Source: Lingula anatina (Eukaryota > Animalia > Brachiopoda). Taken from it: a DNA stretch of 64,000 bases. The DNA is taken from contig CM120641.1 of the NCBI GenBank assembly GCA_051362555.1, positions 5,766,001 to 5,830,000 of the forward strand. Reading direction: 5' to 3'. The notes beneath the pieces are model-generated. The model searched no databases. It saw nothing but the letters and a program-made list of their open reading frames with translations, and had not been told where the DNA came from. The position numbers and the translations under genes are program-made. Below are positions 24,801 through 61,877 of the stretch, piece after piece. Each line of letters opens with the position of its first letter. Position 1 is the stretch's first letter.

Positions 24801-27800
24801 AAACGTAATGTATTATTGCATCAGAATTGGTAGTCTCCTATTTTGTGCATAATTGTTTTGTGCTTTTCTTAAGATGTGACTTATGGGCCTGAAAGACCTT
24901 TGAGAGGGTCAGTCTGTTAATATCCCTTAGGTATCACTTAGCTAATTTCTGAGTTATAAAGCCATTTGCCTAATTGATAGGCCATTAAAGGAGATTACAT
25001 AAAGCACACTTGTTGATATTTCCTTGTAAACTCCCAAAAGTTAAGCTCTCTGCTAGATTAATAATAAGGAAGCAGTGATAATTATGCAGGTTATTATATA
25101 TATTAACCTGCATTAATTGATAATATATATAATCAAAGATTAAAAGTTTGAATAGCAGCTTCATTGAAATTATATTTACCTAGGAGGAGGTTATATTTTC
25201 ACCCCTGTTTATCTGTCATGAACATAACTCAAAAAGTTATGGACCAATTTTGCTGAAATTTTCAGGAACTGTCAGAATTGGGCCAAAGAGGACAATGATT
25301 GGTTTGTAGTGGTGGTCTGGCTCAGTAATCAATCAATAATCAATAATAATCAACAATTGCTGCCTTGGCAGAGGTCTGCACTCTCCGTGGTTTTCTAGTT
25401 TTGTTATGTTTTCCTTTACAATTTTTTCTCAAACACTTGCATTTGTGACTTTTATCTCTCATCTACTCTAGGCTCTGCACATTTTCTGTATTTCCACATA
25501 AGCAATTGTATTGTTTTTTATGTCTTTAAACATCATATAATATTATTTTATTCACTGTCATCATTTTTCAAATATTGAGACTTTCATCATATGACTTTGG
25601 TCTCTCATGGTCCTGAAACTGTAATTTTATTGAAGGGGTGGATTGAGACCATCTTCTGGGTCTTCCAGAAGACAGGTTATTAAGTTTATATTGACTGCTA
25701 TCTATTTTTTTTTCTGTTGGAAGACCATCAAAATGGAGGATGGATCAACATAGATACTTTGGAATACTGTCAGAAAATATCTCTGGATCTGCTCCTGTTA
25801 TTGACCATGTTACCTGTTGTGCATAATTAAAATTCAGTGTTGACTGACAGTGCTATTATAAGCATTATTTATTATTGCATCAAAATTGACAAAATGACCT
25901 TTTTTTTGCATCTTTATTTTCTGTTTTTTGTCTGTACATTTGACAGCTTTGCTGCCTTGTTTTTAACCTGTTTTTATAGCTGTCCCAATAAAGATTTTAT
26001 GTGTTTGAACTAAGATTAAAAAAAAAAAAACAACCTGAATCTCCTTGATCCCAAGTTTTTTATTTCTTCCTGTCACCTTCTTTCCTTTTTCCTTTTTTTT
26101 TTGTACAGAATCTTTTTGTTATACATATTATTGTACTCCATTTTTATGTGTTTCCTTAAAATGCGTAATTTTTACTACAGAGTACCTGCAGGAGAGCCCA
26201 AAGTAGAAGTTTCAGAACCAACTAGAAGGGCTCTAGAAGGCAACTTGGAGTACAACTTCAAACATGCGAGAAGAGGAATGGCCATCATCGTCAACAACTG
26301 TAACTTTGAGGAGAAAACGGAACAAGGTGAAAGGATAGGGACTGATGTAGATGCAGGAGCACTGGCAAACCTTTTCATGGATCTGGGATTTGAAGTCACC
26401 CGTTATGACAATCTAAGCACTATGGAGATGATGTCCGTAATGAGGCAAGGTACATGTATGCTGACATCATTGGGGAAAAGGGATTCATTTTGGGAATAAG
26501 GTTGAAAACAGAGGGAGAAAGAAAGATATCATGGGAAAAAATCATGGGAAAAATTGGAAGAAAGGGAATACTCTGAGTAGTTGGGGGTAATGGTAGTAGG
26601 AGGTTTACAGATTCAGGTTTAGTTTTCCACATTTTTTTCAGTGGTTCACTTGGAATCAAGAGTGAATCAAAGAGTGGTACTTAGTAGTCATGCTTTATAT
26701 GTACAGACTTGATAGTTTCATGGGAATGAGCCCTTAGATCTTTTGTGAAACTTGCTCTAGGGAAAGTTGTCAATCACACCACCAGAGGGGGGATTTTTTT
26801 TTTTTTTTTGGGGGGGGGAGGGGGGGGGGAGATAACAGCCTGAAAGAGCTTGAAGTTATGCTTGCAAGTGGCTGGTCATCGATCCATATGTTAAGCCTCA
26901 GATTTTGCCAACTATTGTGCTCCAGTATCACCAGTATGCTGTTCTTTGTCCAGTTTTAGTAGGTATTGCCCATTATCAACTGCTTGCCTCCATAGCCACA
27001 AGACTTTTCAGTGGGTGTGAGGGTGACATCTTTATAGGCAAACACAAAGTATTGGTGATCTATCTATATTGATAAATTGATGAAATTTTCAGTGAGCATG
27101 GAATGAAATATTTGAGCTGTTTCATTTTTAACTACCCAGTCAGTGCTTTCAAAGTTTGCCAAATTATATTTTGAAATAATAAATTTCATAATTTTAGTAG
27201 GTATTTTATACAAAAAGTTAACATGAAAAAGATCATATTTAGATAAGCTCTGCAACTCAATGACTTAAAGTTAATGCAGTTTTTAGTACCTGCTAACTTT
27301 GTCATATGTACCCCTTACATGAAATCTTGGCCTCAAAATGCTAGAATAGAATTTGTGGAATTGTGGATTGAAAGGAGGTGAAAGTTGAAGTAGATAAATT
27401 AGTGTGATAAAGGCTTGATAATTGAGAGACTAAGTCCCATCTGGTTTTAGGCAAAGGATCCTGGTTTCAAGTTCTGACATTCTTTCCAGTTTCATGTAAT
27501 GGTTCTTTAAATAAGAATCATCTTTTAGTCAGTTTCAGGCAATTATTTTATACTTGTTTTACAACAGGAAAGGGTTCTTCAGTCTACTTTTTTTGTAAGT
27601 TTTAATAAAAGTAATTTGTATCAGAAATGATTGATAAGGGATGGATATTTTTTCTTGACTCACTTTTTCAACATAACAATGGACTTACTGAAATGAAAAA
27701 AGTATCGATTGCCAATTACTCAATATTAATTATTGTGTAATGAGACTGTGGTTTGTATGATGTATTACTGCATCAGTTCCAGAACATTTACCATCTACAT

Positions 27801-30800
27801 TTTTTTCAGTGATTCACTTGGAATCAAGAGTGAATCAAAACCTGGTGGTACTTGGTAGTCATACTTTTTTTATACTTTTTTTCTGTGTGCATTTTGCCTG
27901 TATCTTCTTTCCTGCAAATTAGAACTAAAACAGATACATGGGTTGTCTATTATGGTGCAAGCATTACAAGTATTACATGTCTGCAAGCGCTTTGAAATTT
28001 AAAGACAAATCTTAGTGAAACAATGCAAACTTGAAAGTCTGTTAATACTTAATTTGGAACTTAATCAGCATTTGAACCATACAAAATCTTCCAGTGAGAT
28101 GAAAGTTAAATAGAAATATGATTTTGCCATAACAAGCAAACATTACAGAAATGTGCACAATAAATTACATTATTTGTTATAAAAAACTATTACAAGTATT
28201 CTGGGTTCACATTAGGACTGGCATTTATACCAAACAAATTAAGCTTTCCAGGAACTTTTAACAAAAACAACCACCTGTTTGACAGTTCTGGGGACAGGCA
28301 AGTATGGGGTTGACAGATAGTAGCAGCAATGTGCTCATGACCAGAAAATAAAGACACAGTAAGTTGTCCTCACAATGTCTGTATATATGAATTGATGACC
28401 ACTGTGCATATGCTTTACACCATCCAGACTCTCTGAAGTACATCGCCTCTTTTCATTAAGCATGTTTTATTGATATTTTGCTTATCTTCATTAACCAGTC
28501 ACACTCCATTAAATCCACAATGATTATTGTGCTAGCAGACTCAAAGTTGGTTTAAATCACATCCAATTAAGGTGCTCAGCCTGTCCATTGTACTATGCAT
28601 TATCATATGGCATTAGTGTCTGGGGTAAAAAGGCAATTCACCTCACTTGGCTCATGCCATTAGGCGGGTTTCCAATTGGTTCAAACCAGCTCAGCTTAAA
28701 GACCCAGCTCAAGTGAGTAGGCAACAGGAAGATTAGATTTAGTGCATGTCAATGGTGGACATATCATAATTCAACAGCTTCTGTCTAAAAGAAAAGAGTC
28801 ATGACCATGTATTTGTCTGGACACATGGCATAGAGCTGCATGTACTGAGAATGGCTGAAAATTTAAATGTGTCCCCATAAAAAGTCTCAAGTTTTTGGGC
28901 TTAGATCACATAACTGATTATATGTGAAGTTGACTTTGTGATATTAAAAATTATTTTTTCAAATGATTGGTCTACAGTGAATGTTTTTACATACCTAAAT
29001 ATACTAATGTCTCAACTTTAAGTATCACTCACATTCACAGTTTGCTCTTGGGGCTTAGTCCTGAGACCAAAAAATGAGGTTAATAACCTTCTATATCTTT
29101 CTTGAAATGCAGCCTAGCTAATATCCAACAACATTTTTTCTAAGATCAATTTTCTGCTTATAACAGTTATTATGTAGAACAGGTCCCATATGACAAACTT
29201 TTTCTACTAGTATCTATAGGGCAGGGTCAGTGAGAAGCCCCCTGGACCTCAGACCAGGTTTTGAGAATATATTTGAGGTGTAAGTCTTGTAGGAGTTATG
29301 CAGTTGAACTAGATTTTCCTAGGAAGTGCAAATGCACTGACACTTATATTACTGTGCACAGTGCTACTTGTAAATCTGTGCAAACTGGAAGAGTTTTTGT
29401 GTGTGTGTGTGTGTGTGTGGGGGGGGGGGGATGTTTTTCACAGGTATAAGCAGGAAATAATTTCCTTAAATTTTTCACGTAAGCTAGGTCAGTCTAAAGT
29501 GGTCTTTTTTTTTTTTTTTTTTTTTTTTTGGGGGGGGGGGGTATTTTTAACAGGTATAAGCAGGAGCTAATTTCCTGGAATTTTCCACCAAAGCAAGGTC
29601 AGTTAAATGTGCATTTATGAATTGTCTATGAACTCTAGTGATGAATTTTAGCATCTCACTCATTAATACTCTTACCCCTGTTTAATTTCCTATAAATCTC
29701 CTGCCTGCTTTTTATAAAAAATATCAATCAATACTAAGTTCATTGAATTTTACAATAATTTACTTCTTATGTCATTGGATGAAAATTGTTAGCAGACCCT
29801 GGAAAATATGTGCATGACAGGATGCAAAATGGCCCCTTGGCTCCCATTGATACATAATATGTCTGGATTTTGGATAAGACATATACTGCGAGGAAATTAA
29901 GGCCAAAATCAATTCTGATTTAATCTGTTGGTGCATGCACTAACTTGATAAGACTGAGTAAATTACTGTAGTCTGTCTGGGTGTTCACCTAAGGTATGCA
30001 CAGAAGACACAAATGCAAAGTTTTTTGCAGTGCATGAAGGTTTTTAGTGCTGACTGGGGGGGGGGGGGGTCTGTCCATTGCAGGAGAGATTTTGATGATT
30101 TTGATTTTGATCACCATGTAGTGCAGTAAATTAAGTTTTTCATCTTTCTTTTTTTTTTCTTTTTTTTTTTTTTGTCTAATTGAAAGTATTGCCATGGAAG
30201 TTGTTTATCCTTTAGATAAGGCACTAATTGTTTCTTGGGTACAATTACATTTATTTCCGAAATTCATTGATAATGTGTAAATAGAACTAACAACAACAAC
30301 AAAAACAAAAACCACTCATAAGAACTAATAAAACCAGTAAAAATCAAACTTATTGGCTCTGCCTTTGAGATATTATCTTTTATATTTTTATATTTCAACC
30401 TAAAGGTAAGGATTTAGTAAGAAAGCTCTTTTAAAAGGTATTTAATTTATCACAGATTTGATTTTGAAAGTTCTTTCCAAAGGGTTTAATTTATGTCAGA
30501 CATCCCTGAAAGATTAGTCATAGTCTGGCTTTTAAGCATAATGTGATATATAGTCTGCTTCCAAAAATTATGTAACATAGCCCATAAGTCACCCGATAAG
30601 TTCTGTTACCAAGCACTCAAATGTGTTTTTTATAACACCAACAATCCAGATGCCTGTGTTGGTTTGGTAATGGTTGCCAAGACCACCATATTGGGTGAAC
30701 AACCACACAGGAAATTTGTTGAGATAAACTGTGATCCTGTTTGACATCAGAGTAATGTTTATCTATAAGATAGAACTGTTGCCTGTTGAAAAAAATGAAA

Positions 30801-33169
30801 TACTGTGTCAGTTTATCTGCACATTGCCTCAGTATTACTGGGCTGTAGCTGATAAACATGCATTGAGCGTTCAGGTTTGATTTCATCTTTTAGTGGATTG
30901 AAAATTAAATCATTTTGAGATGCGGTTAATGATCTAGAAATAAATAATAAATGATCAAGCATGAGGAAAATCAGCTGCCAACTTAATTATACATATTTAT
31001 GTGTAATGAAAAGGCTTACTGTTCATTCAGCATTTAATTCATCAGCATGTTTGAATTAAACCCCTCACCCAAAAACAAACAAAAAAATAAATGAAGAGCA
31101 GTAATGTTAAATGATATTCAAAAAATAATCAAATAACACTTTCACATCATGGATTGATCACTTGTTAAAATAAAGGAATATACACTTGATGCCATGATAG
31201 CACTACACATTGGGTGACTTTGTAGACTTTCATAGGGATATAGTGTCCTTGCTATTGGTTGACTTTATTTCAGCTTATACTTTTATGCAGAAGAGAAATG
31301 GAGGGAAGAATTGTGTTATGTGTGACTTGGAATTGCATTGAATGTGTGTTTATTTGTCTTCACTACTGATGCTGAGTTAAATTTTAAGTGAATAGTATTG
31401 TAGGGCTGAAATCAAAACTAAGGGATTGCTGGGACCCATATAGAGATTGACTGGGTGAGATGGACAGGGGAATGACTGGGTGAGATGGACAGGGAAATGG
31501 CTGGGTGAGATGGACAGGGAAATGGCTGGGTGAGATGGACAGGGAAATGGCTGGGTGAGATGGACAGGGGAATGACTGGGTGAGATGGACAGGGAAATGG
31601 CTGGGTGAGATGGACAAAAAAAATGGCTGGGCGAGATGGACAAAGAAATGGCTGGGTGAAATGGACAAGGAAATGACTGGGCGAGATGTATATGGAGCTC
31701 TTGAGCAGTATATCTTGTTACATTTGATGTAATGGGGGCATTGTGTTAGGTGTGACATTGAATTGTACTGACACAACACAATACAGTGTCTTTCCTAATC
31801 CAATACAGTCTAAGATAAGACACTGTATTGTATTGTATTGTTTTGTATTGTGGCAACATGATTACTGTTTTAATTTTGTCAATTTCATTGTAGCTGCCCA
31901 GGAGGACCACTCTGATGCTGACTGTTTTGCCTGTGCGTTCCTAAGCCATGGTATAGAGGGACGGATATATGGGACCAATGGCCTCATATCCATAGATTTA
32001 CTGCTAAGTTTTTTCAAGGGAGACAAGTGTTTATCACTGGCTGGGAAGCCTAAGCTGTTCTTTATACAGGTGGGCAGTTTCATATTTTTTCCTATTTAAA
32101 GAATTACACAAAAACAGGTGGCACTCATTTCAATGACATAGACCCCATTCCCACATATTTTAGATCGATCTATCCCCGTGGGGAGTCTCACTAGATTACT
32201 GTCAGCTTAGCCGACTTAAATGTCTGTCCCGCCTACTAAAAGCTGTAAGGGGGTAATTAACTTCCATGCGCGGTCGTATGACAGCAATTTAGTGTGAACC
32301 CTCAGGGAGTTAGGTCGATCTAGTTGGATCGATCTAAATCTCTGAGAATGCGCTCATAGACTCAAAACTGACAGGCACTGATTTCCGCCATATCTTACAA
32401 ATAATTGATGTTATATTAACCTTTATTTGGACTGATTTCTCTGTACCTTGTTATAGGCCTGTCGTGGAAAGAAGAATGATGAGGGTGTTGATATCCCATT
32501 GGATGAGACAGATAGTGCCACTGAGCCCAAAGTCCGGCGTATTCCTACAGAGGCAGACTACATGGTGGCATATTCTGTGGCACCTGGTAAGAGCAGAAGA
32601 GGAACATACCCAGACTGTTTAGCCCACTGGTCTCTTGCATTAATGGACCTCAGAGAGTTACTAGTCTATTAGTCTGAATTAAGTTGTGCTATACACATCA
32701 GGTGACATCTATAGATAGTGGAAGACTGGTGTTAAACAGCTGCCCAAATTTCCATTAATCTTATTTATTTATTTATTTATTTATTTTGCTATTCAATAAT
32801 TAAGTATTCTGATGCCAAGTATTCTGATAACTTTGTAATGCTCTGGGAGTGGTGGCTCATTGAGGCAAACTGATGTCTGATATATAAAAGAAATATTCCA
32901 AGAATTTTTTTATCTTTCCAGGTTATTACTCATGGAGGAACTCTGTAGATGGCTCCTGGTTTGTGCAGGGTCTGGTGCTAGTGTTGAAGGAGTTCCACCA
33001 AGAGATGGAGCTGCTGCAGATGATGACCTTGGTAAACAAGGTCGTTGCTGAGGAGTTTGCCTCCGACACAGGGTACGAGTACAACAGCGGGATGAAGCAG
33101 ATACCCACTATTGTGTCCAGGCTCACTAAGTTTGTCTATTTCAGACCAAAATATCTTGATTATTCTTAG
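9254..33169 (+). CDS. Effector caspase (caspase-3/7-like), ~295 aa
   Basis: Secure exons are 26181-26449, 31894-32069, 32457-32586 and 32922-33169. They carry [16 protein letters not shown], catalytic [11 protein letters not shown]|ACRG, a DETD linker, YYSWRN, GSWF and KQIP. Two inferred N-terminal micro-exons, 9254-9269 (MESAE) and 10782-10830 ([15 protein letters not shown]), join in the correct phases (1, then 2); these are less certain. Confidence 0.85.
9545..10066. mobile_element. Old foldback/palindromic MITE
   Basis: 9545-~9815 is a diverged reverse complement of ~9835-10066 (GGTCTGCTTAAATTGCTCAATACACCTCAATACAGCGC vs GCGCTGTATTGCGGTGTATTGCGCAATTTAGGTAGACC). The left arm has an expanded poly-A tract. 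Confidence 0.65.
11820..18464 (-). CDS. Fatty acid-binding protein (intracellular lipid-binding protein family), 131 aa, 4 exons
   Basis: Exons 18464-18395 (70 nt, [23 protein letters not shown]), 14358-14186 (173 nt, ..[16 protein letters not shown]..), 13907-13806 (102 nt) and 11870-11820 (51 nt, [16 protein letters not shown]). The GxW motif and the 173/102-nt internal exons match the canonical FABP gene structure. Confidence 0.92.
18581..18621 (-). promoter_or_regulatory. FABP core promoter (TATA box and Inr-like site)
   Basis: Minus-strand TATAAA at 18621-18616 and TCAGT at 18585-18581, about 30 nt downstream and ~120 nt upstream of the ATG. Confidence 0.55.
20365..20510. mobile_element. 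Harbinger-like MITE
   Basis: TIRs GGCCC(A/TG)TAACTCGAAAGCA with a CTG duplication on both sides (20362-20364, 20511-20513). Confidence 0.6.
21829..21879. repeat. (ATTT)n microsatellite
   Basis: Direct reading. Confidence 0.9.
22900..25961 (+). mobile_element. Helentron-associated non-autonomous element (HINE/DINE-1-like), copy 1
   Basis: Order of parts: 5' T-run, sub-TIR TGTACAGACA with adjacent inverted copy, GTC/GCC microsatellite, ~3 tandem 161-bp units (22977, 23138, 23299), 3' sub-TIR TGTCTGTACA, hairpin GACAGC-TTT-GCTGCC, T-run. Homologous along its length to 34570-37633. Confidence 0.8.
25174..25400 (+). mobile_element. Short HINE-like element nested in HINE copy 1
   Basis: Reads TTTACCT..GGAGGTTAT ... 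CCTTGGCAGAGGTCTGCACTCT..CTAGTT. It is absent from the homologous TT site in copy 2 (~37075). Confidence 0.6.
31449..31690. repeat. 25-bp G-rich minisatellite, ~10 copies, in a caspase intron
   Basis: Unit G(G/A)CTGGGTGAGATGGACAGGG(A/G)AAT; CTGGG recurs at 31451, 31476, 31501, 31526, 31551 and onward. Confidence 0.9.
32141..32355. mobile_element. MITE (Harbinger-like) in a caspase intron
   Basis: Imperfect ~30-bp TIRs with a TTTAGATCGATC core, and ATA on both sides. Confidence 0.55.
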
Positions 33170-34569
33170 CTTTTACTCATTTTGTCATCCTTGGCGACAT
33201 GTGATCAGAGTTAATTATATTGTCAAGTCATTCAAAGTAACCAGCTTCCTTCAAATAATTTATACACATATCTTTTATGCATTAGCTATAGAACTGTTTT
33301 GTTCCTTTTTATACATTTTAATAACTGTTGCAGTGGAGTTAGTGTCTGACACAGGGTATGAGTATAACAGCTGTATTCAGGCTGAAAAAAATCTTGGTTA
33401 TCCCTAGCATTTTTTTTAGCACATATGATTGCATTATACAAGTATGATAAAAAAAGGTTTATTGATACGTATCTTCCTTGTTTACCAAAATGTGCTCCAG
33501 ATAGTCTGTCCAGTCATTAATTCACCAGCTTCCTTTCAAGACATTTATACACACCTTTTTTTTACCCAAGTTTCAGAGCTTTTGAGAATTTTTTTAAACA
33601 TTTTGTACAATTTTGGACAAATATATATTTGCTTTGTATTGATTTGACTCAATGCAAAAGAGGAGATCTTGTTTTGGGGATAAATGCATTTTAGACACAA
33701 TACCAAAAGCATTTTAGTAACTGCTCAAGAAAATTGTTAAATGGTCAATGACCACTTCTGTGAAATTTGTCTAAAAGTTGAAAAACTTTATAGGCCTTTT
33801 TAAAGCTGTGCAATTTGTAAGCACTGTGTAATCAGAATGTGCTATAAGCATTGTGGGGACATTGTTTAATGTACAAATTTTACGTGATACAACAATGTGT
33901 TGATTTTATGAAGTTTCAATTGTTGGTTAAACTATGATGATGCCATTGATTTATTTATATAATATTCTATATATAATGCAGCAGTGAAACTGCATGACTT
34001 TTAAATATTTATACTCAAATCATGCTTACATAATCTAGTCAGTGCTTACTGACATATACACTTTATGTATTTGTTGAAACAGAATTTGTTAGGGACTGAC
34101 ATTGTTTTAGAATGTCTGGTGCATTTTGTTGTTTTAATGATTTGGGGCATTTAAAAGCATGCTTTTAGTTTGTCTATTGCTTTTCAGAGGAATCCTTTGG
34201 ACGGAGTTATCCATATTTACATACCTTAACAACCAGTTTCCCTTGTTTATTTGACAATTACCACTACCAATTTTAATCATAATATTTAAAAATGATCTAT
34301 ACTTCATAAGTTATGTTTATAAGAACTGTGTTACTGCATGAATGATATAATCTGAGTTTTAACACTGATAGATGTATATTTAATCTCAAAGCAAGAAAAT
34401 CTTTCTTTATTGTCTCTTTTCTTTTACAGAAATGAAATCGTATGTATTTGAGTTCTTGAAAATGTGTTGTGATATGAAAAATTTGACCCAAAGATCTCAA
34501 TAAAATGTTATTAGATACAAGTATTGTTTTTTTTTTCTTTCTTTCAGATGTATTGCACTGTAAAAGGCA

Positions 34570-37500
34570 TTTTTATGTACAGACACAGATGTGTCTGTAC
34601 ATATAGCCATCACCTGCGTCTGTCGTCGCCGTCGCCGTTGTCGCTGTCGTTGCCGTCGTCGCCGTCGCCGTGCACTTTTACCGATAACACGATAAGTGGA
34701 AAACCATTTTTTCTTTTGGCTTGAAACTTACAGAACTGATGAATATTCATAATACGCAGGTCAAGTTCGAAAATCAGCATGATCGGGCTATTAATATGGA
34801 AGTAATGCAGTTTTTTCACTTTTTTCAACATTTATGCAATACCGATAACACAATATTTGAAAAACCGTTTTACCTTTTGGCTTGAAACTTACAGAACTGA
34901 TAAATATTCTTAAAACACAGGTCAAGTTCGAAAATCAGCATGATCAGGCCATTTATATTGAAGTTATGCAGTTTTTTCACTTTTTTCAGCATTTATGCAA
35001 CACCGATAACACAATATTTGAAAAACCATTTTATCTTTTGGCATGAAACTTACAGAATTGATGAATATCTATAATACGCAAGTCAAGTTTGAAAATTGGC
35101 ATGATCAGAGCATTTTTATAAAAGTTTTGCTGTTTTTTCACTTTTTTTCAGCATATATGCAACACCTATAACACATTTTAAGGAAAATCGATTGCCCAAT
35201 TGTCTTGAAATTCACAGTAGTGATCAGTATTACTGAAATACAGATTAAGTTTTGAAAATAAGCTTGATCAGTAAAGGTTTGGTGAAGTTATACCTTTTTT
35301 TGTATATAAGTGTTTTTTTTTCCTCAAATTTAATTCTCAGGCATGCTAACAGTCTCATTTTTGAACTAATTAGATATGTTAAGTTGTTCTTTTGACATTT
35401 TCTGCATCTTAACAACATTGTTAGTTGATTATAAAAAAATGATGGTAAACCTGATATTGTGTATTGTTTAATAAGTGACCAAAATGGAAAAAAAACACAT
35501 ATCTTTACAGTTTGTCAGATTCAACCATTCACTATGTTCAGAATTTCAGAATGGAGCAAGTTGGACATTTATAATTGTTCTATTGATATTTTTGATTTTA
35601 CAACATATTTTTTGATTGATAATATAAAAATGACAATAAATTGATTATTTTGCTTTATGTAAAAAAGGTGTTGAAAATGGAAATAAACTCTTTCAATACA
35701 GTTTTCTCTTGTTTACATTTTGGGATTTTCACTGTATGACTCTGAACTCTATAGGCTAGTCACATTTTCTGAATATCCATGATACTTTTATTTTATTATT
35801 AAAAAATTTATGGTTATTATGCTGTTAAGCATTGTGTAATATTGCATCAAAATTGAACAAAACCCTGCCTCCGTAGTGGTGGTGAAAGGAAAACCATGTC
35901 ACTTGCTCTTCTCACACTTACAGGAAAGAAACATAGGACTGAAATTCAGCTTCAGTTGAAAAATTGTCTCATTAATTAATTGTTTGGAAGTAATACAGTT
36001 TTTTTTGTGAAAATTTTTATCTTTCACATGTTGCAATTTTCAGTGTGGGACTTAGAGCTCCCTTGGGCATGAAGCCCAGTGGTAATCAAATTTTCTTAAT
36101 GTCCATGTTTTTAAAAGTAGATATTTTAAAATTGGTGGTATTTAATTAGTTAATCATTATGTAATGTTGCATCAAAATTGACAAAAAACCAACTTTGTGC
36201 TCTGCTACCATTAATATTATGTAAAGTAAAGTGTTACTTTCTATTTTTTTACTATTCTTACAAAAATGATTCTTAGGATTGACATTCAGCTCATATAAGA
36301 GAACCAGCTCTATTGGATTATCATTTTTATTAAATTTATGAATTTTTTGTGAAATTTTCATTTTTCTCATTCTGGCACTTTCTAATTGTAAACTTGGGCT
36401 TCGTTCACATGCAATGTCTATTTTCTAAATTCTATTTTCTATTCGCGCTATCTTATGATCACGATCTGTGCCCTGAATATCCCGCCGCGTAATTACTGGC
36501 AGCGCGAGCCAGTTACTTATAGTAACTTATAGTAACTGGCTCGCGCTGCCAGTAATTACGCCGCGGGATATTCAGGGCACAGACCATGATCATAAGACAT
36601 ACCGCAAATAGAAAATAGAATTTAGAAAATAGACATTGCATGTGAACGAAGCCTTGAACTCTGATGGGCCTGGAGCCTTATGCTTTTACTTTCATCAGTG
36701 TTACCTGTACGTTGTGCATAATTAAAATTTGATGTTGACTGTGCAGTTAAACATAATGTATTATTGCATCAGAATTGGTAGTCTCCTGTTTTATTTTGTG
36801 CATTATTGTTTTCTGCTTTTCTTAAGGTGTGACTTATGGACCTGAAGACCTTTGATAGACAAATTTGTGTGGTCAGTCTGTAAATTCCCCTTGGGTATTC
36901 ACTAGGCTAATTTCATTGCTATAAACTCATTTGCCTAATTAAGCGGCCATTAAATGAAATTTCATAAAGCACACTTGTTGATATTTCCCTGTAAACTCCC
37001 AAAGGTTAAGCTCTCTGCTAGATAACATAGTGTCCATAATAAGGAAGCAGTGAATAGCAGCTTCATTGGAATTATATTTTTGTTGTTTTCTTTTTAATTT
37101 TTTCTCCAACACTGGCATTTTTAAGATGTGATTTTTAACTCCCATCCACCTGAGGCTCTGCACATTTTCAGTATTTCCACATAAGCAGTTGTATTGGTAT
37201 TTATGTCTTTAAACACGCTGTAATATTATTTTATGCACTGTCATCATTTTTCATATATTGGGACTTTCATCATGTGAATTTTAACTCTCATGGTCCTGAA
37301 ACTGTAATCTTATTGAAGGGGATTGATTGAGACCATTTTCTGGGTCTCCTGGAAGACAGTCAGATTTTAAAGTTTATATTTACGGGTTTCTGTTGGAAGA
37401 CCATCAAAATGGAGGATGGATCAACAAAGATACTTTGGAATACTGTCAGAAAATATCTCTGGATCTGCTCCTGTTATTGACCATGTTACCTGTTGTGCAT

Positions 37501-37633
37501 GATTAAAAATCAGTGTTGACTGACTGTGCTATTATAAGCATATATTATTGCATCAAAATTGACAAAATGACCTATATTGCATCTTTTTTTTCTGTTTTTT
37601 TGTCTGTACATTTGACAGCTTTGCTGCCTTGTT
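34570..37633 (+). mobile_element. Helentron-associated non-autonomous element (HINE/DINE-1-like), copy 2
   Basis: Same termini and body as 22900-25961, with a longer GTC/GCC microsatellite and ~4 tandem 161-bp units (34680, 34841, 35002, 35164). Confidence 0.8.
36397..36653. mobile_element. Palindromic PIF/Harbinger-like MITE nested in HINE copy 2
   Basis: 257-bp near-perfect hairpin GGCTTCGTTCACATG...CATGTGAACGAAGCC with a 3-bp TTG TSD. The single TTG at the empty site in copy 1 (~24710) confirms the duplication. Confidence 0.85.
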
Positions 37634-38899
37634 AAATTAGTTCTTGTATTACTGAAACTACTAATGCTCATTATAAAATAAATGATTTGATCTTATCGAT
37701 CCCTTGAGCCTCCGCCACCTGGCCAGATTCATGGTCACCTTTCTATTCAGTGCAAAGGGGCTTGAAGGAATCTATTGAGGCACAAGAAAATGTATGTTAT
37801 GCAGTGTTGGATAATGAAATAATGTGTGTTTGATTTGATATAGTATTTGTTTCATGTCTGATTGTTAGAATGGCTCACTATTATCACAATAAATACAAAA
37901 TGGGTATGGTGCGGTCTTTCACACAACTCTTTATCAAAAGAATTTTCGTTAAACACTTACTGTTAATTAAGTCCCAATTCATGACATCCATGTTTTTTTT
38001 TAAATTAATTTAACCAACAATGTGACTGCCTTAAGGAAGGGAAGTATTCTGATGTCCCCATCATGATATAACGTATTGGGGCGGTCGATGTGAATGATGC
38101 GACACACTAGAACGCGATCGACAACATTACTAAAGTCACGGGTTCGAGTCCCGGATGAGGAACGTCACGACAACGACCTGGCCCCTGAATCGGGATGCAT
38201 TATCAGAGAGAAAACTTTTGATTTTTTACATAAGACTGTTCATATGTTCATGCAGTACCCGGGGCAAGTCCGCAGTCGACATTTGAAAGAGTAAAGACTA
38301 CTCAATACTAAAACCGCCGAGGTTTGAACAGCTGTGCATCTCACCGTGCTCTGTAACGTCAAAGGTGAAACCAAACGTTATCTCAGTGCAAAACAAAATG
38401 AAAATTAAAGCATCTGAAGTCATCTAACTAGGAACGTTCAGAACAGGCCTATCAAGGAAAGCGATCCAACTTGTTTTGATTCAGTAGCTTTTCCCGTATA
38501 ACAGCAGGTCATACCACATGGAGGCCCGTAGCCAGAAATTTCAAAAGGGGGGTTCTTTTTCTGAAAAAGTGGACCTTTTCCCATAAAAAACTTCATGTAC
38601 CTAGCTCAAATTTTACCTAGAGTGGACCTTTTCCCAGCAAAAGGGGCAGTCCTTTCGATCCCCCCCCCCCCCCCCCCCCCTTGGTTACGGGCCTGACCTG
38701 TTAACCGTGTTCGGTAGAAAAACGATATCTCCTCGGCAGAATTATGTGCCAAATATGTTTTACTCAAAATTACCATCACTGCAATCGCACCAGTAATTAA
38801 ACACTTGAATTTTTTTTTTATTCTCTCCTCTTAGGTTCTCGCTAAAAGTAAAACACGCCTGTTGTGAACCGCATCTGATCCCTGTGGACTCTTTAATAT

Positions 38900-41584
38900 A
38901 ATAATAATAATAAAGGTTTATTGTGTTCTTTGCAATATATAAGACATATATTGAATGTATATGTATAAAAGTATAAAGATGTAGTACTAAAATAGAGCTT
39001 TAAGATAAATTCTAAGTTATAAAACCAATAATGAGGTTAAAAATGGTGATTCGTTGTTATTTTCAAAAGCTAAAAGTTAATGGATAGACCTAGATCATTG
39101 ACACGTATATAAACAGTATGGGATAAAAGTGTTTCTATATCTTTTTGTCCGACATTTTGGTAAAACATATCTATAAACATTCCTTAGGTCCTTTTCTATG
39201 ACACGAGTGTTAGGTAAAAGATGGTTCAATCTATGTGTACACAGTTTTATCTCATTTAATAATTTTTTGCATAAGTCAGTACGCCGAGATTTCAAGGTAG
39301 GTAATTCAGTGATGTCCATTGCTTCGTTGTAAGTGAGTTCAGGGTATATAATATGAAGAGCCCTTTTTTGGATGTTCTCTAAGGCTTTAGATTGCTGTGC
39401 GGTAATTCCAGCATGCCATAGCTGACAAGCGTACTCAAGTGTTGGTCTGAGATTGCTTTTATAAATTTGTAAGAGGTCATGTCTCGGCACCCCAGCGTGT
39501 TTGACCATGCATAAGAAATACAGTCTGGATGCAGCTTTTGAGAGAGTTTTTTCTATATGTAAGTCCCATTTCAAATTAGAACTGATATGAACTCCCAGCA
39601 GTTTGGCATGTGAAACTTGTTCGATTTTTATACCATCAATTATTAGGTTATCAGGTACAGTAGGGTTTTTACTGAAACAGATAAACAGTTCAACAGTTTT
39701 TTTAGGATTGATTAGCATGTTATTTTGTTTTGTCCATTCATATAGGTTTGAGGCTGCTATGGGAAGTTTAGATTGTGTAGGTTTGGCACCTTGTTCTATT
39801 TCCCTTGGAGATGGTTGGTGAACTGTCTCATAAACTGTAGTGTCATCCACATATTTTACTGCTGGTAAAAAACATTCCATGTCATTTATCATTGTAATGA
39901 AAAGGAGAGGTCCTAATTTTGTACCCTGGGGCACGCCCCCATGAATATGGCACCATTGTGACATTACTGATCCACACTTGATCCGTTGCTGTCTATTTAG
40001 TAAAAAGGCATGGACCCATCTGAGTAATACTGGAGGTACTCCATAGCTGCAAAGCTTGCCTAGCAAAATATTGTGGTCTATTAAATCAAACGCTTTTCTA
40101 AAATCAAGTAATAAAACCCGAGACTGTGCCCCATGAGTGTCACTGGCCTTGGCCCAGGTGTCAAATAGCTCGATTAAGGCCATTGTGGTGGAGGAACCTT
40201 TAACATTGCCAAACTGATCTTTCTTAATATGTGGTCCTAGTATCTCCCACAGCCATGTAAAAATGAATGCTTCCAATTCCTTGCTGAGGATAGGTGTTAG
40301 GGAAACAGGTCTTAAATCATTTTCCACGCTCAGTGCTGGTTTAATTTTAGGCAGTGGCACTACATTGGCACATTTCCAGATTGTTGGTAGCTTTCCTTGA
40401 CGTATGGTATTGTTCCAGATTGCACATACTGGTGCACCGAGAACTCCAGCAAAGTCTTTGAGAATCCAGTTCGGTATATTATCAGGACCGGATGCCTTGT
40501 TTGTGTTAATATTAATGAGAGATCTTTCCACTTGTTCTACTGTGAGCTGGTACTGTGAGGGAATGTTAACATCATGGAAGTCCGTCTCATCTAAGGGGTC
40601 TAGGTGAGAAGTAATGGACTGGAAGAAGTTGTTGATGTTTTGTGCAAGTGCTTCCATATCCCCCTCATGGAGATGGTTGGCCATGGTGGTCAGAGAGGCA
40701 CTGTTTTGAGATTTACCCATGATGTTATTGATACCTTTCCACCATTTCCCTGGGTCTGACGATTTTGCCTCTTCAATCTGAGTTCTGTAGTAGACCGTTT
40801 GTAACCGTTTGCGTTCTTGGTTTACTTTGTTTCTAAGGTTTCTAAATTCAGGGTCCTTCAGTTGAAAGGCACGCTGGCGTTGGATGATTAGGTCACGAAA
40901 CTCATCTGTCACCCAAGGCTTGTCATGTGTACTCCTTGTCACAACCTTGGTGGGGAAGTGGGTTTCTATTAAGTTATGCAAGGTCTGATAAAACATATCA
41001 CATTGCTGATGGACACAGTCACTGTGGTATAGTTCATCCCAGTGGATGTTTTGAATGGCATCTGCGAAACTAATTCGTTTTGAAAGTGGGTATTTTCGGA
41101 CAGTCACCTTACATTTCCTGGCTGATTGTAACATTTGTGATGCGACAGGTTTCACTAAGATGGTTTCATGTTTAGACAAGCCAATAGGAGACAAATGGAC
41201 TGGGCTCTGATAGTAATCTTGCATGTTGGTATAAACAAGATCTAAGGTGGAGTTCATATGTGTAGGACATTTTACCAGTTGTTTTAATCTTTGGCTTTTA
41301 ATGAGCAATTTGTCAGGCAGATGGTTAAAGTCTCCGGTCAAAATTATTCCAGCATTCACATACTTTGTTTTTATTGTATCAAGTGTTTCAAGCAGATGTT
41401 GGACCATGTCATTATGGTTGCTATCTGGTGGATGGTAAATACATCCAACCACTAGTGGGTTGAACTGTCTAGGCATTCTCTGTGGGTTGAGTCTGATCCA
41501 CAGGGTCTCAAATTGATCATGGTGTGCCCAGCTAAGCCTTTCAAATGGTATAGACTGATGGATATAACAAACTATACCACCATA
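38900..41584 (-). mobile_element. 5'-truncated non-LTR retrotransposon (CR1/L2 group)
   Basis: Flanked by a TAATAT duplication (38894-38899, 41585-41590) that is single-copy in the other array units. Has a 3' AATAAA and (TTA)n tail and encodes partial APE endonuclease plus full RT. Confidence 0.92.
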
Positions 41585-41593
41585 TAATATCAT
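39095..41593 (-). CDS. LINE ORF2: C-terminal half of APE endonuclease plus complete reverse transcriptase
   Basis: Uninterrupted frame with CIYHPP, LTGDFN, TLDLVYTN, KASGPDNIP, LRPVSLT, LLDFRKAFD, GVPQGTKLGP and YVDD. The in-frame ATG at 41593-41591 comes from the flanking repeat, not the LINE. Confidence 0.85.
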   Translation of the reverse strand: MILYGGIVCYIHQSIPFERLSWAHHDQFETLWIRLNPQRMPRQFNPLVVGCIYHPPDSNHNDMVQHLLETLDTIKTKYVNAGIILTGDFNHLPDKLLIKSQRLKQLVKCPTHMNSTLDLVYTNMQDYYQSPVHLSPIGLSKHETILVKPVASQMLQSARKCKVTVRKYPLSKRISFADAIQNIHWDELYHSDCVHQQCDMFYQTLHNLIETHFPTKVVTRSTHDKPWVTDEFRDLIIQRQRAFQLKDPEFRNLRNKVNQERKRLQTVYYRTQIEEAKSSDPGKWWKGINNIMGKSQNSASLTTMANHLHEGDMEALAQNINNFFQSITSHLDPLDETDFHDVNIPSQYQLTVEQVERSLININTNKASGPDNIPNWILKDFAGVLGAPVCAIWNNTIRQGKLPTIWKCANVVPLPKIKPALSVENDLRPVSLTPILSKELEAFIFTWLWEILGPHIKKDQFGNVKGSSTTMALIELFDTWAKASDTHGAQSRVLLLDFRKAFDLIDHNILLGKLCSYGVPPVLLRWVHAFLLNRQQRIKCGSVMSQWCHIHGGVPQGTKLGPLLFITMINDMECFLPAVKYVDDTTVYETVHQPSPREIEQGAKPTQSKLPIAASNLYEWTKQNNMLINPKKTVELFICFSKNPTVPDNLIIDGIKIEQVSHAKLLGVHISSNLKWDLHIEKTLSKAASRLYFLCMVKHAGVPRHDLLQIYKSNLRPTLEYACQLWHAGITAQQSKALENIQKRALHIIYPELTYNEAMDITELPTLKSRRTDLCKKLLNEIKLCTHRLNHLLPNTRVIEKDLRNVYRYVLPKCRTKRYRNTFIPYCLYTCQ

Positions 41594-41827
41594 GGGTAAA
41601 TCCAAACTAAATCTTAGTATAAAACAAACTCCGAGCTCCGTGTCGGGTTCTCAAACACGACTTCCTGTGCATCATGCACTAAAATACCGTTCATGTCTGG
41701 GACTGGGGTTTCGTGGGATGAAATGCGGCACCCGGATTATCGATTGGGATAGCAGATCTACACATGTACATCCAATCTGGCGCTCTCCGTGACAAGGTTG
41801 AAAGTTTCCATCTGATCGTCTCTTGTC

Positions 41828-41923
41828 GACGAAGCTGTCGTGGCTGCGTGGTAACTCTGCTGTCTTGCAGACAGGCAGGAATTCGGACGCTGGTTCGAGT
41901 CCCGGTATCTACTGTGTCATTTT
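41828..41923 (+). ncRNA. Candidate Pol III small RNA A (~96 nt, vault-RNA-like architecture), copy 1
   Basis: A box TGGCTGCGTGG (41841-41851), B box GGTTCGAGTCC (41892-41902), T4 terminator, complementary 5'/3' ends and a central hairpin CTGTC/GACAG. Identity and start site are inferred. Confidence 0.5.
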
Positions 41924-41987
41924 CTGCCAGAATTAATTTTTCAAAATTGCGATTGATTACTATAAGAGGAAACTCGCACGTACGGAG

Positions 41988-42189
41988 GGTGGGCGGGTCA
42001 GTCACGGTGCAGTCGGTAGCGTGCATGGATGCAAATGAGACAGCCAAAGCGTCATCAACCTTGGTAACGCAAAGTCACGGGTTCGAGTCCCGGATGAGGC
42101 ACGTCACAACAACGACCTGGACCCTGAATCGGGATGCCACGAGACGAGAACGAGTGAGGGCTCTCGTGGGACTTAGCAAATTACCTTTT
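41988..42189 (+). ncRNA. Candidate Pol III structured RNA B (~200 nt), copy 1
   Basis: TATAAG at 41961, A-box-like CGGTGCAGTCGG (42005-42016), B box GGTTCGAGTCC (42080-42090), first T4 run at 42186-42189, and several internal stems. Confidence 0.5.
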
Positions 42190-43380
42190 GCATAAAAATA
42201 CGGTATACTTCAGAAAGTTTACATCTGCTTCGACAATTATATCTCCTTTCTTTTCAGTTGAAAGTCCTTATATTGGTGCCACGATCTTGAAGTTAAACTG
42301 AGCTAAAGCTAACTCCGTATGTTCTGCATTTCATCAAAATGTGCTATCTTTTTGGTGGAATTATCAGAGAGAAAACTTTTGACATTTTACAAAAGTTGCG
42401 TCGCCTCTACTCCTTTTATCAGGCACAAGCTTTGTCTTTTTATGCCCCTCCTTTCCTATCTTGGGCCTTTGCTTCTCAAGACTGTTCATATGTTCATGCA
42501 GTACCCGGGGCAAGTCCGCAGTCGACATTTGAAAGAGTAAAGACTACTCAATACTAAAACCGCCGAGGTTTGAACAGCTGTGCATCTCACCGTGCTCTGT
42601 AACGTCAAAGGTGAAACCAAACGTTATCTCAGTGCAAAACAAAATGAAAATTAAAGCATCTGAAGTCATCTAACTAGGAACGTTCAGAACAGGCCTATCA
42701 AGGAAAGCGATCCAACTTGTTTTGATTCAGTAGCTTTTCCCGTATAACAGCAGGTCATACCACATGGAGGCCCGTAGCCAGAAATTTCAAAAGGGGGGTT
42801 CTTTTTCTGAAAAAGTGGACCTTTTCCCATAAAAAACTTCATGTACCTAGCTCAAATTTTACCCAGAGTGGACCTTTTCCCAGCAAAAGAGGCAGTCCTT
42901 TCGATCCCCCCCCCCCCCCCCCCCTTGGCTACGGGCCTGACCTGTTAACTGTGTTCGGTAGAAAAACGATATCTCCTCGGCAGAATTATGTGCCAAATAT
43001 GTTTTACTCAAAATTACCATCACTGCAATCGCACCAGTAATTAAACACTTGAATTTTTTTTATTCTCTCCTCTTAGGTTCTCGCTAAAAGTAAAACACGC
43101 CTGTTGTGAACCGCATCTGATCCCTGTGGACTCTTTAATATCATGGGTTAATCCAAACTAAATCTTAGTATAAAACAAACTCCGAGCTCCGTGTCGGGTT
43201 CTCAAACACGACTTCCTGTGCATCATGCACTAAAAAATACCGTTCATGTCTGGGACTGGGGTTTCGTGGGATGAAATGCGGCACCCGGATTATCGATTGG
43301 GATAGCAGATCTACACATGTACATCCAATCTGGCGCTCTCCGTGACAAGGTTGAAAGTTTCCATCTGATCGTCTCTTGTC

Positions 43381-43478
43381 GACGAAGCTGTCGTGGCTGC
43401 GTGGTAACTCTGCTGTCTTGCAGACAGGCAGGAATTCGGACGCTGGTTCGAGTCCCGGTATCTACTGTGTCATTTTTT
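43381..43478 (+). ncRNA. Candidate Pol III small RNA A, copy 2
   Basis: As copy 1, with a T6 terminator. Confidence 0.5.
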
Positions 43479-43540
43479 GCCAGAATTAATTTTTCAAAAT
43501 TGCGATTGATTACTATAAGAGGAAACTCGCACGTACGGAG

Positions 43541-43742
43541 GGTGGGCGGGTCAGTCACGGAGCAGTCGGTAGCGTGCATGGATGCAAATGAGACAGCCAA
43601 AGCGTCATCAACCTTGGTAACGCAAAGTCACGGGTTCGAGTCCCGGATGAGGCACGTCACAACAACGACCTGGACCCTGAATCGGGATGCCACGAGACGA
43701 GAACGAGTGAGGGCTCTCGTGGGACTTAGCAAATTACCTTTT
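43541..43742 (+). ncRNA. Candidate Pol III structured RNA B, copy 2
   Basis: As copy 1; the A-box variant is CGGAGCAGTCGG. Confidence 0.5.
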
Positions 43743-44503
43743 GCATAAAAATACGGTATACTTCAGAAAGTTTACATCTGCTTCGACAATTATATTTCCT
43801 TTCTCTTCAGTTGAAAGTCCTTATATTGGTGCCACGATCTTGAACTTAAACTGAGCTAAAGCTTTTCCCGTATAACAGCAGGTCATACCACCTGCAAGCC
43901 CGTAGCCAGAAATTTCAAAAGGGGGGTTCTTTTTCTGAAAAAGTGGACCTTTTCCCATAAAAAACTTCATGTACCTAGCTCAAATTTTACCCAGAGTGGA
44001 CCTTTTCCCAGCAAAAGGGGCAGTCCTTTCGATCCCCCCCCCCCTCCGGCTACGGGCCTGACCTGTTAACCGTGTTCGGTAGAAAAACGATATCTCCTCG
44101 GCAGAATTATGTGCCAAATATGTTTTACTCAAAATTACCATCACTGCAATCGCACCAGTAATTAAACACTTGAATTTTTTTTTTATTCTCTCCTCTTAGG
44201 TTCTCGCTAAAAGTAAAACACGCCTGTTGTGAACCGCATCTGATCCCTGTGGACTCTTTAATATCATGGGTAAATCCAAACTAAATCTTAGTATAAAACA
44301 AACTCCGAGCTCCGTGTCGGGTTCTCAAACACGACTTCCTGTGCATCATGCACTAAAAAATACCGTTCATGTCTGGGACTGGGGTTTCGTGGGATGAAAT
44401 GCGGCACCCGGATTATCGATTGGGATAGCAGATCTACACATGTACATCCAATCTGGCGCTCTCCGTGACAAGGTTGAAAGTTTCCATCTGATCGTCTCTT
44501 GTC

Positions 44504-44601
44504 GACGAAGCTGTCGTGGCTGCGTGGTAACTCTGCTGTCTTGCAGACAGGCAGGAATTCGGACTCTGGTTCGAGTCCCGGTATCTACTGTGTCATTTTT
44601 T
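44504..44601 (+). ncRNA. Candidate Pol III small RNA A, copy 3
   Basis: As copy 2, with a GGACTCTGG variant before the B box. Confidence 0.5.
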
Positions 44602-44663
44602 GCCAGAATTAATTTTTCAAAATTGCGATTGATTACTATAAGAGGAAACTCGCACGTACGGAG

Positions 44664-44865
44664 GGTGGGCGGGTCAGTCACGGTGCAGTCGGTAGCGTGC
44701 ATGGATGCAAATGAGACAGCCAAAGCGTCATCAACCTTGGTAACGCAAAGTCACGGGTTCGAGTCCCGGATGAGGCACGTCACAACAACGACCTGGACTC
44801 TGAATCGGGATGCCACGAGACGAGAACGAGTGAGGGCTCTCGTGGGACTTAGCAAATTACCTTTT
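44664..44865 (+). ncRNA. Candidate Pol III structured RNA B, copy 3
   Basis: As copy 1, with one C>T variant. Confidence 0.5.
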
Positions 44866-45632
44866 GCATAAAAATACGGTATACTTCAGAAAGTTTACAT
44901 CTGCTTCGACAATTATATTTCCTTTCTCTTCAGTTGAAAGTCCTTATATTGGTGCCACGATCTTGAACTTAAACTGAGCTAAAGCTTTTCCCGTATAACA
45001 GCAGGTCATACCACCTGCAAGCCCGTAGCCAGAAATTTCAAAAGGGGGGTTCTTTTTCTGAAAAAGTGGACCTTTTCCCATAAAAAACTTCATGTACCTA
45101 GCTCAAATTTTACCCAGAGTGGACCTTTTCCCAGCAAAAGGGGCAGTCCTTTCGATCCCCCCCCCCCCCCCCCTCCGGCTACGGGCCTGACCTGTTAACC
45201 GTGTTCGGTAGAAAAACGATATCTCCTCGGCAGAATTATGTGCCAAATATGTTTTACTCAAAATTACCATCACTGCAATCGCACCAGTAATTAAACACTT
45301 GAATTTTTTTTTTATTCTCTCCTCTTAGGTTCTTGCTAAAAGTAAAACACGCCTGTTGTGAACCGCATCTGATCCCTGTGGACTCTTTAATATCATGGGT
45401 AAATCCAAACTAAATCTTAGTATAAAACAAACTCCGAGCTCCGTGTCGGGTTCTCAAACACGACTTCCTGTGCATCATGCACTAAAAAATACCGTTCATG
45501 TCTGGGACTGGGGTTTCGTGGGATGAAATGCGGCACCCGGATTATCGATTGGGATAGCAGATCTACACATGTACATCCAATCTGGCGCTCTCCGTGACAA
45601 GGTTGAAAGTTTCCATCTGATCGTCTCTTGTC

Positions 45633-45730
45633 GACGAAGCTGTCGTGGCTGCGTGGTAACTCTGCTGTCTTGCAGACAGGCAGGAATTCGGACTCTGGTT
45701 CGAGTCCCGGTATCTACTGTGTCATTTTTT
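45633..45730 (+). ncRNA. Candidate Pol III small RNA A, copy 4
   Basis: As copy 3. Confidence 0.5.
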
Positions 45731-45792
45731 GCCAGAATTAATTTTTCAAAATTGCGATTGATTACTATAAGAGGAAACTCGCACGTACGGAG

Positions 45793-45994
45793 GTTGGGCT
45801 GGTCAGTCACGGAGCAGTCGGTAGCGTGCATGGATGCAAATGAGACAGCCAAAGCGTCATCAACCTTGGTAACGCAAAGTCACGGGTTCGAGTCCCGGAT
45901 GAGGCACGTCACAACAACGACCTGGACCCTGAATCGGGATGCCACGAGACGAGAACGAGTGAGGGCTCTCGTGGGACTTAGCAAATTACCTTTT
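45793..45994 (+). ncRNA. Candidate Pol III structured RNA B, copy 4
   Basis: 5' variant GTTGGGCTGGTC; otherwise as copy 2. Confidence 0.5.
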
Positions 45995-46244
45995 GCATAA
46001 AAATACGGTATACTTCAGAAAGTTTACATCTGCTTCGACAATTATATCTCCTTTCTCTTCAGTTGAAAGTCCTTATATTGGTGCCACGATCTTGAACTTA
46101 AACTGAGCTAAAGCTAACTCCGTATGTACTGCATTTTTTGTGGGATTATCAGAGAGAAAACTTTTGATTTTTTACAAAAGTTGCGTTGCCTCTACTCCTT
46201 TTATCAGGCACAAGCTTTGTCTTTTTATGCCCCTCCTTTCCTAA

Positions 46245-57608: not shown

Positions 57609-60434
<2,826 letters not shown>

Positions 60435-61357: not shown

Positions 61358-61877
61358 CGCCCTGGAAGTGAATCATTACCCCTGAGTGAATCTGGGTGAA
61401 TGCGCTGGTCTGCATTAACTTACAATTTATATGTTTGCCATAAGAAGTGATAACGATTACAGCCAGAAACCCATTGAGAGTACACACCACGGCGTTTGGT
61501 TTATTTAATGTCACTTGCAGGTATATTTAAGTAACCCTGGAGTGTAAATCACACCAACACGTTACAACCAACGACATTGTTTATGTATTGTAGCATTTGG
61601 TTGGTAGTACTTACATGTATATGTTCCATAGACTACACAAATAATGATAGTCTTACAAGATTGTGAAAATTTTAGAGATGTGCAACAACAAAAATTAGAG
61701 TAGACTAGCTGGTTAAAAACCATCCTTATGGACACAGCTAGGATATTATTTAATGTCAAAAGATGCATTTAAGATTGAATAATTTGTAACTTAGAAGATT
61801 TACAAGACTTAAATAGTGTATTAAACTGTTCTTATGGCGATGAATTTATTTATCTTTCTGATTTTTAGTCTGTCAAC

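Follow-up and report, generated by a model that had tools for sequence, protein, structure and literature searches.

Does the tandem array at the centre of a 64-kb stretch of the Lingula anatina genome (contig C2:5766001-5830000 of a 329-Mb genome; hereafter the window) carry working genes for RNA polymerase III (Pol III), and if so, what preserves them? An earlier note had described the array as four nearly identical units, each with two GC-rich modules that might encode a dosage-amplified pair of Pol III RNAs. Our results place the array in a satellite family spread over many chromosomes, in which every complete unit holds two predicted Pol III genes of about 90 nt (module 1) and about 195 nt (module 2). 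That the modules are active is, taken by itself, very probable. On balance we also consider it probable that both genes are transcribed in the germ line, that selection keeps their promoter and terminator signals rather than most of the RNA sequence or fold, and that the host selects their total output.

The satellite family and its unit of two predicted genes

The four units are 96-99% identical across their full length, spacers included, much as the earlier note had stated; a truncated fifth unit had been missed, and together with this one, severed by a long interspersed nuclear element (LINE), they form a single array of a ~1.4-kb satellite (Table 1). The GC-rich modules, the perfect B box and the T runs were also correctly described. 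The modules have 56% GC against 31% in the intermodule gap, and T runs lie 3' of both (T4-T6 for module 1, T4 for module 2). The perfect B box GGTTCGAGTCC has nine copies in the window, eight in the four units and one in the truncated fifth, and was not found in the window outside satellite units. The lengths behind the proposed shortening from 1.55 to 1.12 kb are right, though not their reading, because a 173-bp miniature inverted-repeat transposable element (MITE) enlarges the 1.55-kb unit and ~425 bp of spacer is missing from the 1.12-kb units; the family unit is thus ~1.38 kb. In unit 2, this spacer deletion is flanked by short AGCT microhomologies. Retention of both modules on shortening, which the note had also claimed, is not general, and a 645-bp shortened unit on C3 keeps module 2 alone. 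Unit-specific changes, the LINE with its target duplication and dozens of distinct arrays make it unlikely that the array is an assembly artefact.

Genome-wide pattern searches returned 473 matches for module 1, 582 for module 2 and 485 for a spacer motif, which are rough lower bounds from three patterns of differing strictness, and a first look gave 794 candidates for the two-module cassette. Amplification is on the scale of dozens of arrays across the genome and not, as the note had it, of four copies. Loci were sampled from the first 100 places per search, with a skew to C2, C3, C4 and C8, and 33 representative units from ~30 loci on C2, C3, C4, C5, C8 and C9 were aligned. Identity is 63-94% among 14 of these 33 units and reaches 98% between young ones. 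The sampled arrays occur in both orientations, their ends fall at many places in the unit, and transposons have inserted into them, which argues for a dispersed macrosatellite copied as DNA; that the upstream elements accompany the genes across arrays likewise points to DNA-based copying. Similar counts for modules and spacer exclude a large family of dispersed short interspersed nuclear elements (SINEs), in agreement with the earlier view that the modules are not SINE heads, and the singleton matches that we fetched were unit fragments, not solo modules. A carrier transposon, as would be indicated by common flanks, was rejected, since one array pair alone has a flank in common. The arrays at C2:7.66 and C3:9.85 Mb start and end within 7 bp of one unit position, and this shared end position is compatible with circle integration. 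An old fragment with both modules is found at ~1.236 Mb on C9, two tRNA-Thr genes being ~0.8 kb away.

Conserved signals and a fast-changing module 1

Both modules have the architecture of a type-2 or composite Pol III gene, with conserved boxes A and B at workable spacing and a terminator of T4 or longer downstream, the latter present after module 1 in 33/33 units and after module 2 in 32/33. The box B pattern is kept in 29/33 and 27/33 units and the GG of box A in 32/33 and 31/33 (modules 1 and 2, respectively), and the TATA-like elements stand 43-45 nt 5' of box A, compared with 40-43 nt in the true vault RNA genes of this genome. In array trees, the TATA-like elements, boxes A and B and the module 2 terminator change at about 0.2-0.75x the spacer rate; the module 1 TATA-like element changes at 0.37-0.53x in three of four array sets and at 1.0x in the four-array old C3 set. 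The boxes are less changed than spacer in 14/14 array pairs.

Differences between arrays were counted in 11 sister pairs and variation within arrays in 12 arrays, three non-sister pairs of a 14-pair set having been dropped or replaced. Between sister pairs, the differing sites amount to 26/792 in the internal boxes (0.48x) and 19/583 in the external elements (0.47x), against 539/7821 in the spacer, whereas within arrays the internal boxes vary at 1.49x and the external elements at 1.35x spacer. The contrast has an odds ratio of 2.4 for the internal boxes (p 3.5e-4) and 2.2 for the external elements (p 0.007), with sites treated as independent in both p values. The signals thus vary within arrays yet differ little between them, indicating that mutations arise but do not spread, as expected under purifying selection. 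This conservation supports the proposal of two Pol III-type genes per unit, and the expectation that the modules would be conserved above spacer holds for the promoter and terminator elements and fails for the modules as wholes, the module 1 body changing 2.4-2.9x faster than spacer and the module 2 body at 1.0x. Conservation also extends beyond a minimal promoter, to five bases after module 1 box A and to the block just 5' of the module 2 T run, which is conserved more strongly than any other block in the unit; the module 2 middle changes at 0.46x the spacer rate, though only in the young clade. Positions 42177-42190 of the module 2 block are complementary to a sequence that we take to resemble a 5' splice site.

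If the signals alone matter, the modules could be landing pads for TFIIIC and Pol III that act on chromatin as boundaries or in nuclear positioning, with RNA as a by-product. Such a role would leave signals conserved and bodies free; tRNA genes and Pol III promoter elements are described as boundaries in yeast in the accessible part of PMC5368702, and the window array has a caspase gene on one side and another gene ~2.6 kb downstream. The terminators, however, are conserved equally to the boxes, and the arrays occupy scattered, apparently unselected, transposon-invaded sites, which makes this role very improbable.

Module 1 changes much faster than the spacer, by 2.97x in the 5' flank, 2.44x in the middle and 2.81x in the tail between arrays, and by 2.83x, 2.94x and 2.66x, respectively, within arrays. 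The excess is unaltered once CpG sites are removed, appears in 13, 13 and 14 of 14 pairs for flank, middle and tail, and is seen separately in the young clade and in the old C3 clade. Two pairs fetched after the segments had been fixed differ at 25/140 sites in the hot segments, against 103/1809 in the spacer and 6/250 in the boxes. The peak lies 16-21 nt 5' of box A, equal to 9-14 nt before the equivalent of tRNA position +1. For tRNA loci, the accessible part of Thornlow et al. (PMC6130373) describes a 7-10-fold higher mutation rate and about fourfold greater divergence of the 5' flanks; the peak is 12-15 nt upstream in human and 10-15 nt in all species, values are fivefold higher in active than in inactive genes, and C>T and G>A are in excess. 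The commonest within-array changes in the satellite are C>T and G>A. In the module 1 middle, divergence and polymorphism are raised alike (odds ratio 0.93), which suggests that mutation rather than positive selection drives the change. The module 1 pattern, with its peak at a tRNA-like position, is best read as the footprint of transcription-associated mutagenesis, and would imply that Pol III has long transcribed the units in the germ line, module 1 more strongly than module 2. The 5' flank of module 2 reaches 2.74x within arrays and is weak between arrays. True tRNA duplicates of the same genome gave two alignable pairs only, nearly identical, for comparison.

Neither RNA body shows covariation or clear constraint. 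Folding is no better than that of shuffled sequences (z 0.19 for module 1, 0.18 for module 2), and the consensus fold has 7 pairs in module 1 and 24 in module 2, with 0 and 2 double changes. The self-complementary ends to which the earlier note had drawn attention turned out to be weak, the proposed terminal stems being 75% and 85% paired with covariation not above shuffles. A coding role was rejected, the 157-aa and 127-aa frames across the modules being without Pfam match. Four of nine listed RNA runs were used, from poly(A), oligo-dT or unspecified libraries and with 6-25% of each read; depth was at most ~10 over the modules, not above spacer and without pile-up at the ends. Two true vault genes were equally without discrete signal, and the test is therefore blind to short Pol III RNAs. 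In the same four runs, MITE depth was 200-1600, and the MITE reads extend into unrelated flanks at both ends, as RNA from many loci does.

Could the modules then be dead tRNA and vault gene relics, carried passively in the satellite? The lack of visible RNA (in runs blind to vault genes too), the lack of structure and the non-canonical box A would fit, but this reading explains neither why the boxes change only half as fast as spacer among arrays that differ by up to 37%, nor the threefold peak of change at the start-site position, and is hardly credible.

In the reading that we prefer, TFIIIC would bind boxes A and B and TFIIIB the -30 element, and Pol III would make the ~90-nt and ~195-nt RNAs, two per unit. 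DNA opening at and after the start would raise the mutation rate, so that the melted start region and the transcribed strand mutate, and unequal exchange would homogenise arrays that spread as DNA segments with ragged ends. Least certain is the last step, in which the host would select for the total output of short, sequence-tolerant RNAs, as has been proposed for tandem 4.5SH, snaR and OAX; we favour it because conservation exceeds the minimal promoter.

Several observations count against this reading. Certain shortened units have lost a module, and box A is non-canonical in both genes, that of module 2 beginning with C and that of module 1 lacking the tRNA A14. No discrete transcript appeared in the four RNA runs, which are insensitive to such RNAs and in which the vault-gene control was likewise blank. 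The segment borders were first drawn once the change profile was known, and the p values take sites as independent. Every mutation class is raised in the hot segments, with the highest ratio for T>A (5.6x) as against 3.5x for C>T; the between-array excess of the module 2 5' flank is lost without CpG sites (1.25x, p 0.48), and the module 2 body, at 1.0-1.2x spacer, is not hypermutable.

Moreover, the present data do not separate host benefit from the main rival, a self-propagating satellite in which the genes are transcribed, the RNAs are idle, and working Pol III promoters stall forks, recombine more, amplify and seed new arrays. Self-propagation would account for signal-only conservation with neutral bodies, for ragged array ends and for both orientations. 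As far as the accessible part of PMC5368702 goes, tRNA genes are transcription-dependent fork barriers and possible recombination sites in yeast mutants, whereas wild-type fission yeast tRNA genes are not recombination hotspots. The pre-T-run block of module 2, the five bases after module 1 box A and the module 2 middle of the young clade, all conserved beyond a minimal promoter, also tell against self-propagation, which we regard as possible but rather unlikely.

Ancestry and relation to known systems

Three vault RNA genes of this genome exceed the Rfam cut-off (C3:13612379-13612488, C10:7560231-7560343 and C10:7560848-7560959); they have TATA boxes, a common 3' part and a foldable terminal stem, and exons of MVP lie on C1. 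In 33/33 units, the 12 nt after the GG of module 1 box A are identical to one vault gene at 8-11 of 12 positions, with 11/12 in five old-clade units, whereas no tRNA in an incomplete set of 48 sequences does better than 5-8/12; the chance of 11/12 is ~1.5e-5 and of 9/12 ~2e-3, before allowing for post hoc choice. Module 1 resembles vault RNA (RF00006) in its box A with the near-identical motif, its variable middle (2.4-2.9x spacer rate), box B, TATA-like element and T run. It differs in lacking the conserved 3' part and the terminal stem (7 local pairs, none covarying; panhandle 75% paired, with no excess over shuffles), in its sub-cut-off score and in its hundreds of copies. Native units gave no match to the RF00006 model (cut-off 34 bits), and the best array-derived score, 22.8 bits, comes from a chimeric unit at C8:11030780. 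In this chimeric gene, recombination between two box A elements joins the module 2 leader to the module 1 body, and the ends pair.

The head of module 2, in old-clade units, agrees with the tRNA-Asn of this genome in 26/31 columns, the best of 49 tRNA sequences, and this signal has decayed in young units. The aligned part is the head only, and neither ARAGORN nor Rfam found a cloverleaf with acceptor stem. The earlier failure to match the modules to known RNAs was borne out, with no tRNA found and no Rfam match at gathering score or better than E 0.9. It is likely that module 1 derives from the 5' part of a vault RNA gene and module 2 from tRNA-Asn, though these are among the least certain steps of our account. 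Two other sources were rejected. A tRNA-Thr(AGT) is the best of 48 for the young consensus of module 1 (41.5 against a shuffled maximum of 33.5), yet old clades do not retain the middle on which the match rests, so that the likeness is likely chance or secondary; for module 2, the tRNA-Ile motif is absent from the genome. No viral or metagenome relatives were found.

Module 1 might still encode a functional RNA of the vault type, amplified en masse, with a variable loop specific to each array and with TEP1 or vault particles as its binding partners. A vault fragment would then have been captured by the satellite and multiplied into hundreds of short RNAs, in which nothing but the vault-type motif and the promoter is retained while transcription mutates the loop into array-specific variants; together with the tRNA-Asn-derived partner, these could make up a Pol III RNA family that diversifies itself and is loaded on vault or TEP1 complexes. 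The 12-nt motif, the chimeric score, the presence of the MVP gene and the conserved boxes around a variable middle, which is the vault pattern in the accessible part of PMC7058938, are in its favour. The native units miss the vault model, however, and lack the conserved terminal stem of the three true genes, which already provide the genome with conventional vault RNAs, and the tRNA comparison set is incomplete. Both the working vault-type RNA and the self-diversifying family built on it seem improbable.

By these tests, the family falls outside the vault, tRNA and SINE families. Solo copies do not outnumber flanks, and the upstream elements are common to and conserved across arrays, unlike a SINE family. 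Array ends at many unit positions and the lack of an Rfam ribozyme match do not fit terminal-repeat retrotransposons in miniature, Helitrons or retrozymes. What is found is a Pol III-type gene embedded in a longer tandem unit and amplified as DNA, as in Pol III-transcribed tandem repeats. Judged on sequence, this is a dispersed macrosatellite of the 4.5SH, OAX or snaR kind, whose units likely carry two active Pol III genes. Our literature search, which omitted most subscription papers, found no description of the family.

Adenovirus VA-I/II and EBV EBER1/2 are pairs of adjacent Pol III genes that point the same way and have both internal boxes and upstream elements. The earlier comparison of the modules with them holds for this layout; it does not extend further, the Lingula modules having no viral context or match, no conserved strong structure, and heads of apparently cellular ancestry (vault motif, tRNA-Asn). 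The EBER promoter type is mentioned in the accessible part of PMC7058938.

Rodent 4.5SH comprises hundreds of short Pol III genes in long tandem units, lineage-restricted and derived from an older Pol III gene, as described in the accessible part of PMC7279448. Both systems have boxes A and B and a TATA-like box near -30, but 4.5SH has one 7SL/B1-derived gene per 4-5-kb unit and a demonstrated RNA (PMC7279448), whereas the Lingula satellite has two predicted genes, vault-like and tRNA-Asn-like, per 1.4-kb unit, lies on many chromosomes and has one hypermutable body. Xenopus OAX/satellite I, newt PolIII/TAN and Rana/polIII are likewise repeated in tandem and contain a Pol III segment of tRNA origin, with no dispersed SINE to match it; they are amphibian and have one tRNA-like segment per unit, the comparison being with their description in PMC10702118, whose accessible part contains no report of signal selection or a mutation footprint. 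The Pol III genes of great-ape snaR also stand in tandem, have spread through duplication of DNA and include subsets that diverge fast; they differ in being Alu-derived and ~30 in number, with a highly structured RNA and demonstrated expression (accessible part of PMC3045588). The accessible parts of PMC7916137 and PMC12547018 served as background only.

The satellite may add an invertebrate to the vertebrates with Pol III-transcribed satellites, and it could represent a mass-amplified offshoot of vault RNA. It also serves as a natural experiment in which mutation and selection at Pol III genes can be told apart, since hundreds of related copies with an RNA body free to change would make visible the raw footprint of the transcribed region, which is hidden in tRNA genes. 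An old question becomes testable here, namely whether it is their RNA that keeps such repeats in existence or the help that transcription gives to their spread.

Inserted transposons and neighbourhood

Table 1. Features of the satellite array and its insertions, in window positions (multiples are relative to the spacer rate)
Feature	Position	Strand	Remarks
Truncated fifth unit	38132-38899	+	Module 2 box B at 38141; internal deletion; MITE-bearing spacer (38521-38695); piecewise 95-99% identity to unit 1
LINE, 5'-truncated, inserted in array	38900-41584	-	851-aa stop-free frame; RVT_1 E 3e-24
Unit 1	41585-43135	+	1551 bp, MITE-bearing
Module 1 TATA-like element	41796-41812	+	Conserved; ~30 nt 5' of predicted start; change rate vs spacer in text
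Module 1 hypermutable 5' flank	41813-41832	+	Peak 41820-41825; 2.97x between, 2.83x within arrays
Module 1, predicted ~90-nt Pol III gene	41829-41923	+	Putative start 41829-41831
Module 1 parts			Box A 41841-41851; vault-like extension to 41863; hypervariable middle 41857-41891
Module 1 parts, 3' side			Box B 41892-41902; tail; T run 41920-41923
Module 2 TATA-like element	41960-41975	+	Conserved; 0.32-0.54x
Module 2, predicted ~195-nt Pol III gene	41992-42189	+	Putative start 41992-41995
Module 2 parts			tRNA-Asn-like head; box A 42005-42016; box B 42080-42090; ~90-nt 3' part
Module 2 most conserved block	42177-42196		T4 at 42186-42189
MITE, 173 bp	42767-42939	.	13-bp terminal inverted repeats; 5-bp target duplication; also 43895-44060, 45018-45189
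Unit 2	43136-44258	+	1123 bp; module 1 43382-43478, module 2 ~43548-43742
Unit 3	44259-45387	+	1129 bp; unit 2's deletion; module 1 44505-44601, module 2 ~44671-44865
Unit 4, partial	45388-46243	+	Long spacer type; end ~46243; module 1 45634-45730, module 2 ~45800-45994

The junctions of the LINE show a 6-bp target duplication (38894-38899 and 41585-41590), and the element, which has an open reverse transcriptase frame, is young. A second LINE-like fragment adjoins the right end of the array at 46241. Among the sampled arrays, the MITE is seen within units in the window array alone and is dispersed elsewhere in the genome, with an older copy at window 15654-15804.

The caspase gene (26020-33220) ends near 33200, upstream of the array, and the first coding exon of the next gene, which looks cyclic-nucleotide-binding by eye, begins near 48875, ~2.6 kb downstream of the array. 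Further along lie a RAD51-like exon (59941-60309) and a single-exon SHQ1 (61869-63620). Two copies of a ~3-kb dispersed repeat that contains a 161-bp tandem unit (22900-25961 and 34570-37633) flank the caspase exons. Elsewhere in the assembly, contig C16 at ~2.64-3.15 Mb has 14-23% GC, clusters of CCA-ending bacterial-type tRNAs, one tRNA with anticodon TCA, and open reading frame cover of 75-93% under genetic code 4 against 37-60% under code 11; this region looks like a Mollicutes-like genome within an animal scaffold, either a co-assembled symbiont or an insertion. The same contig is animal-like at 2.30 Mb.

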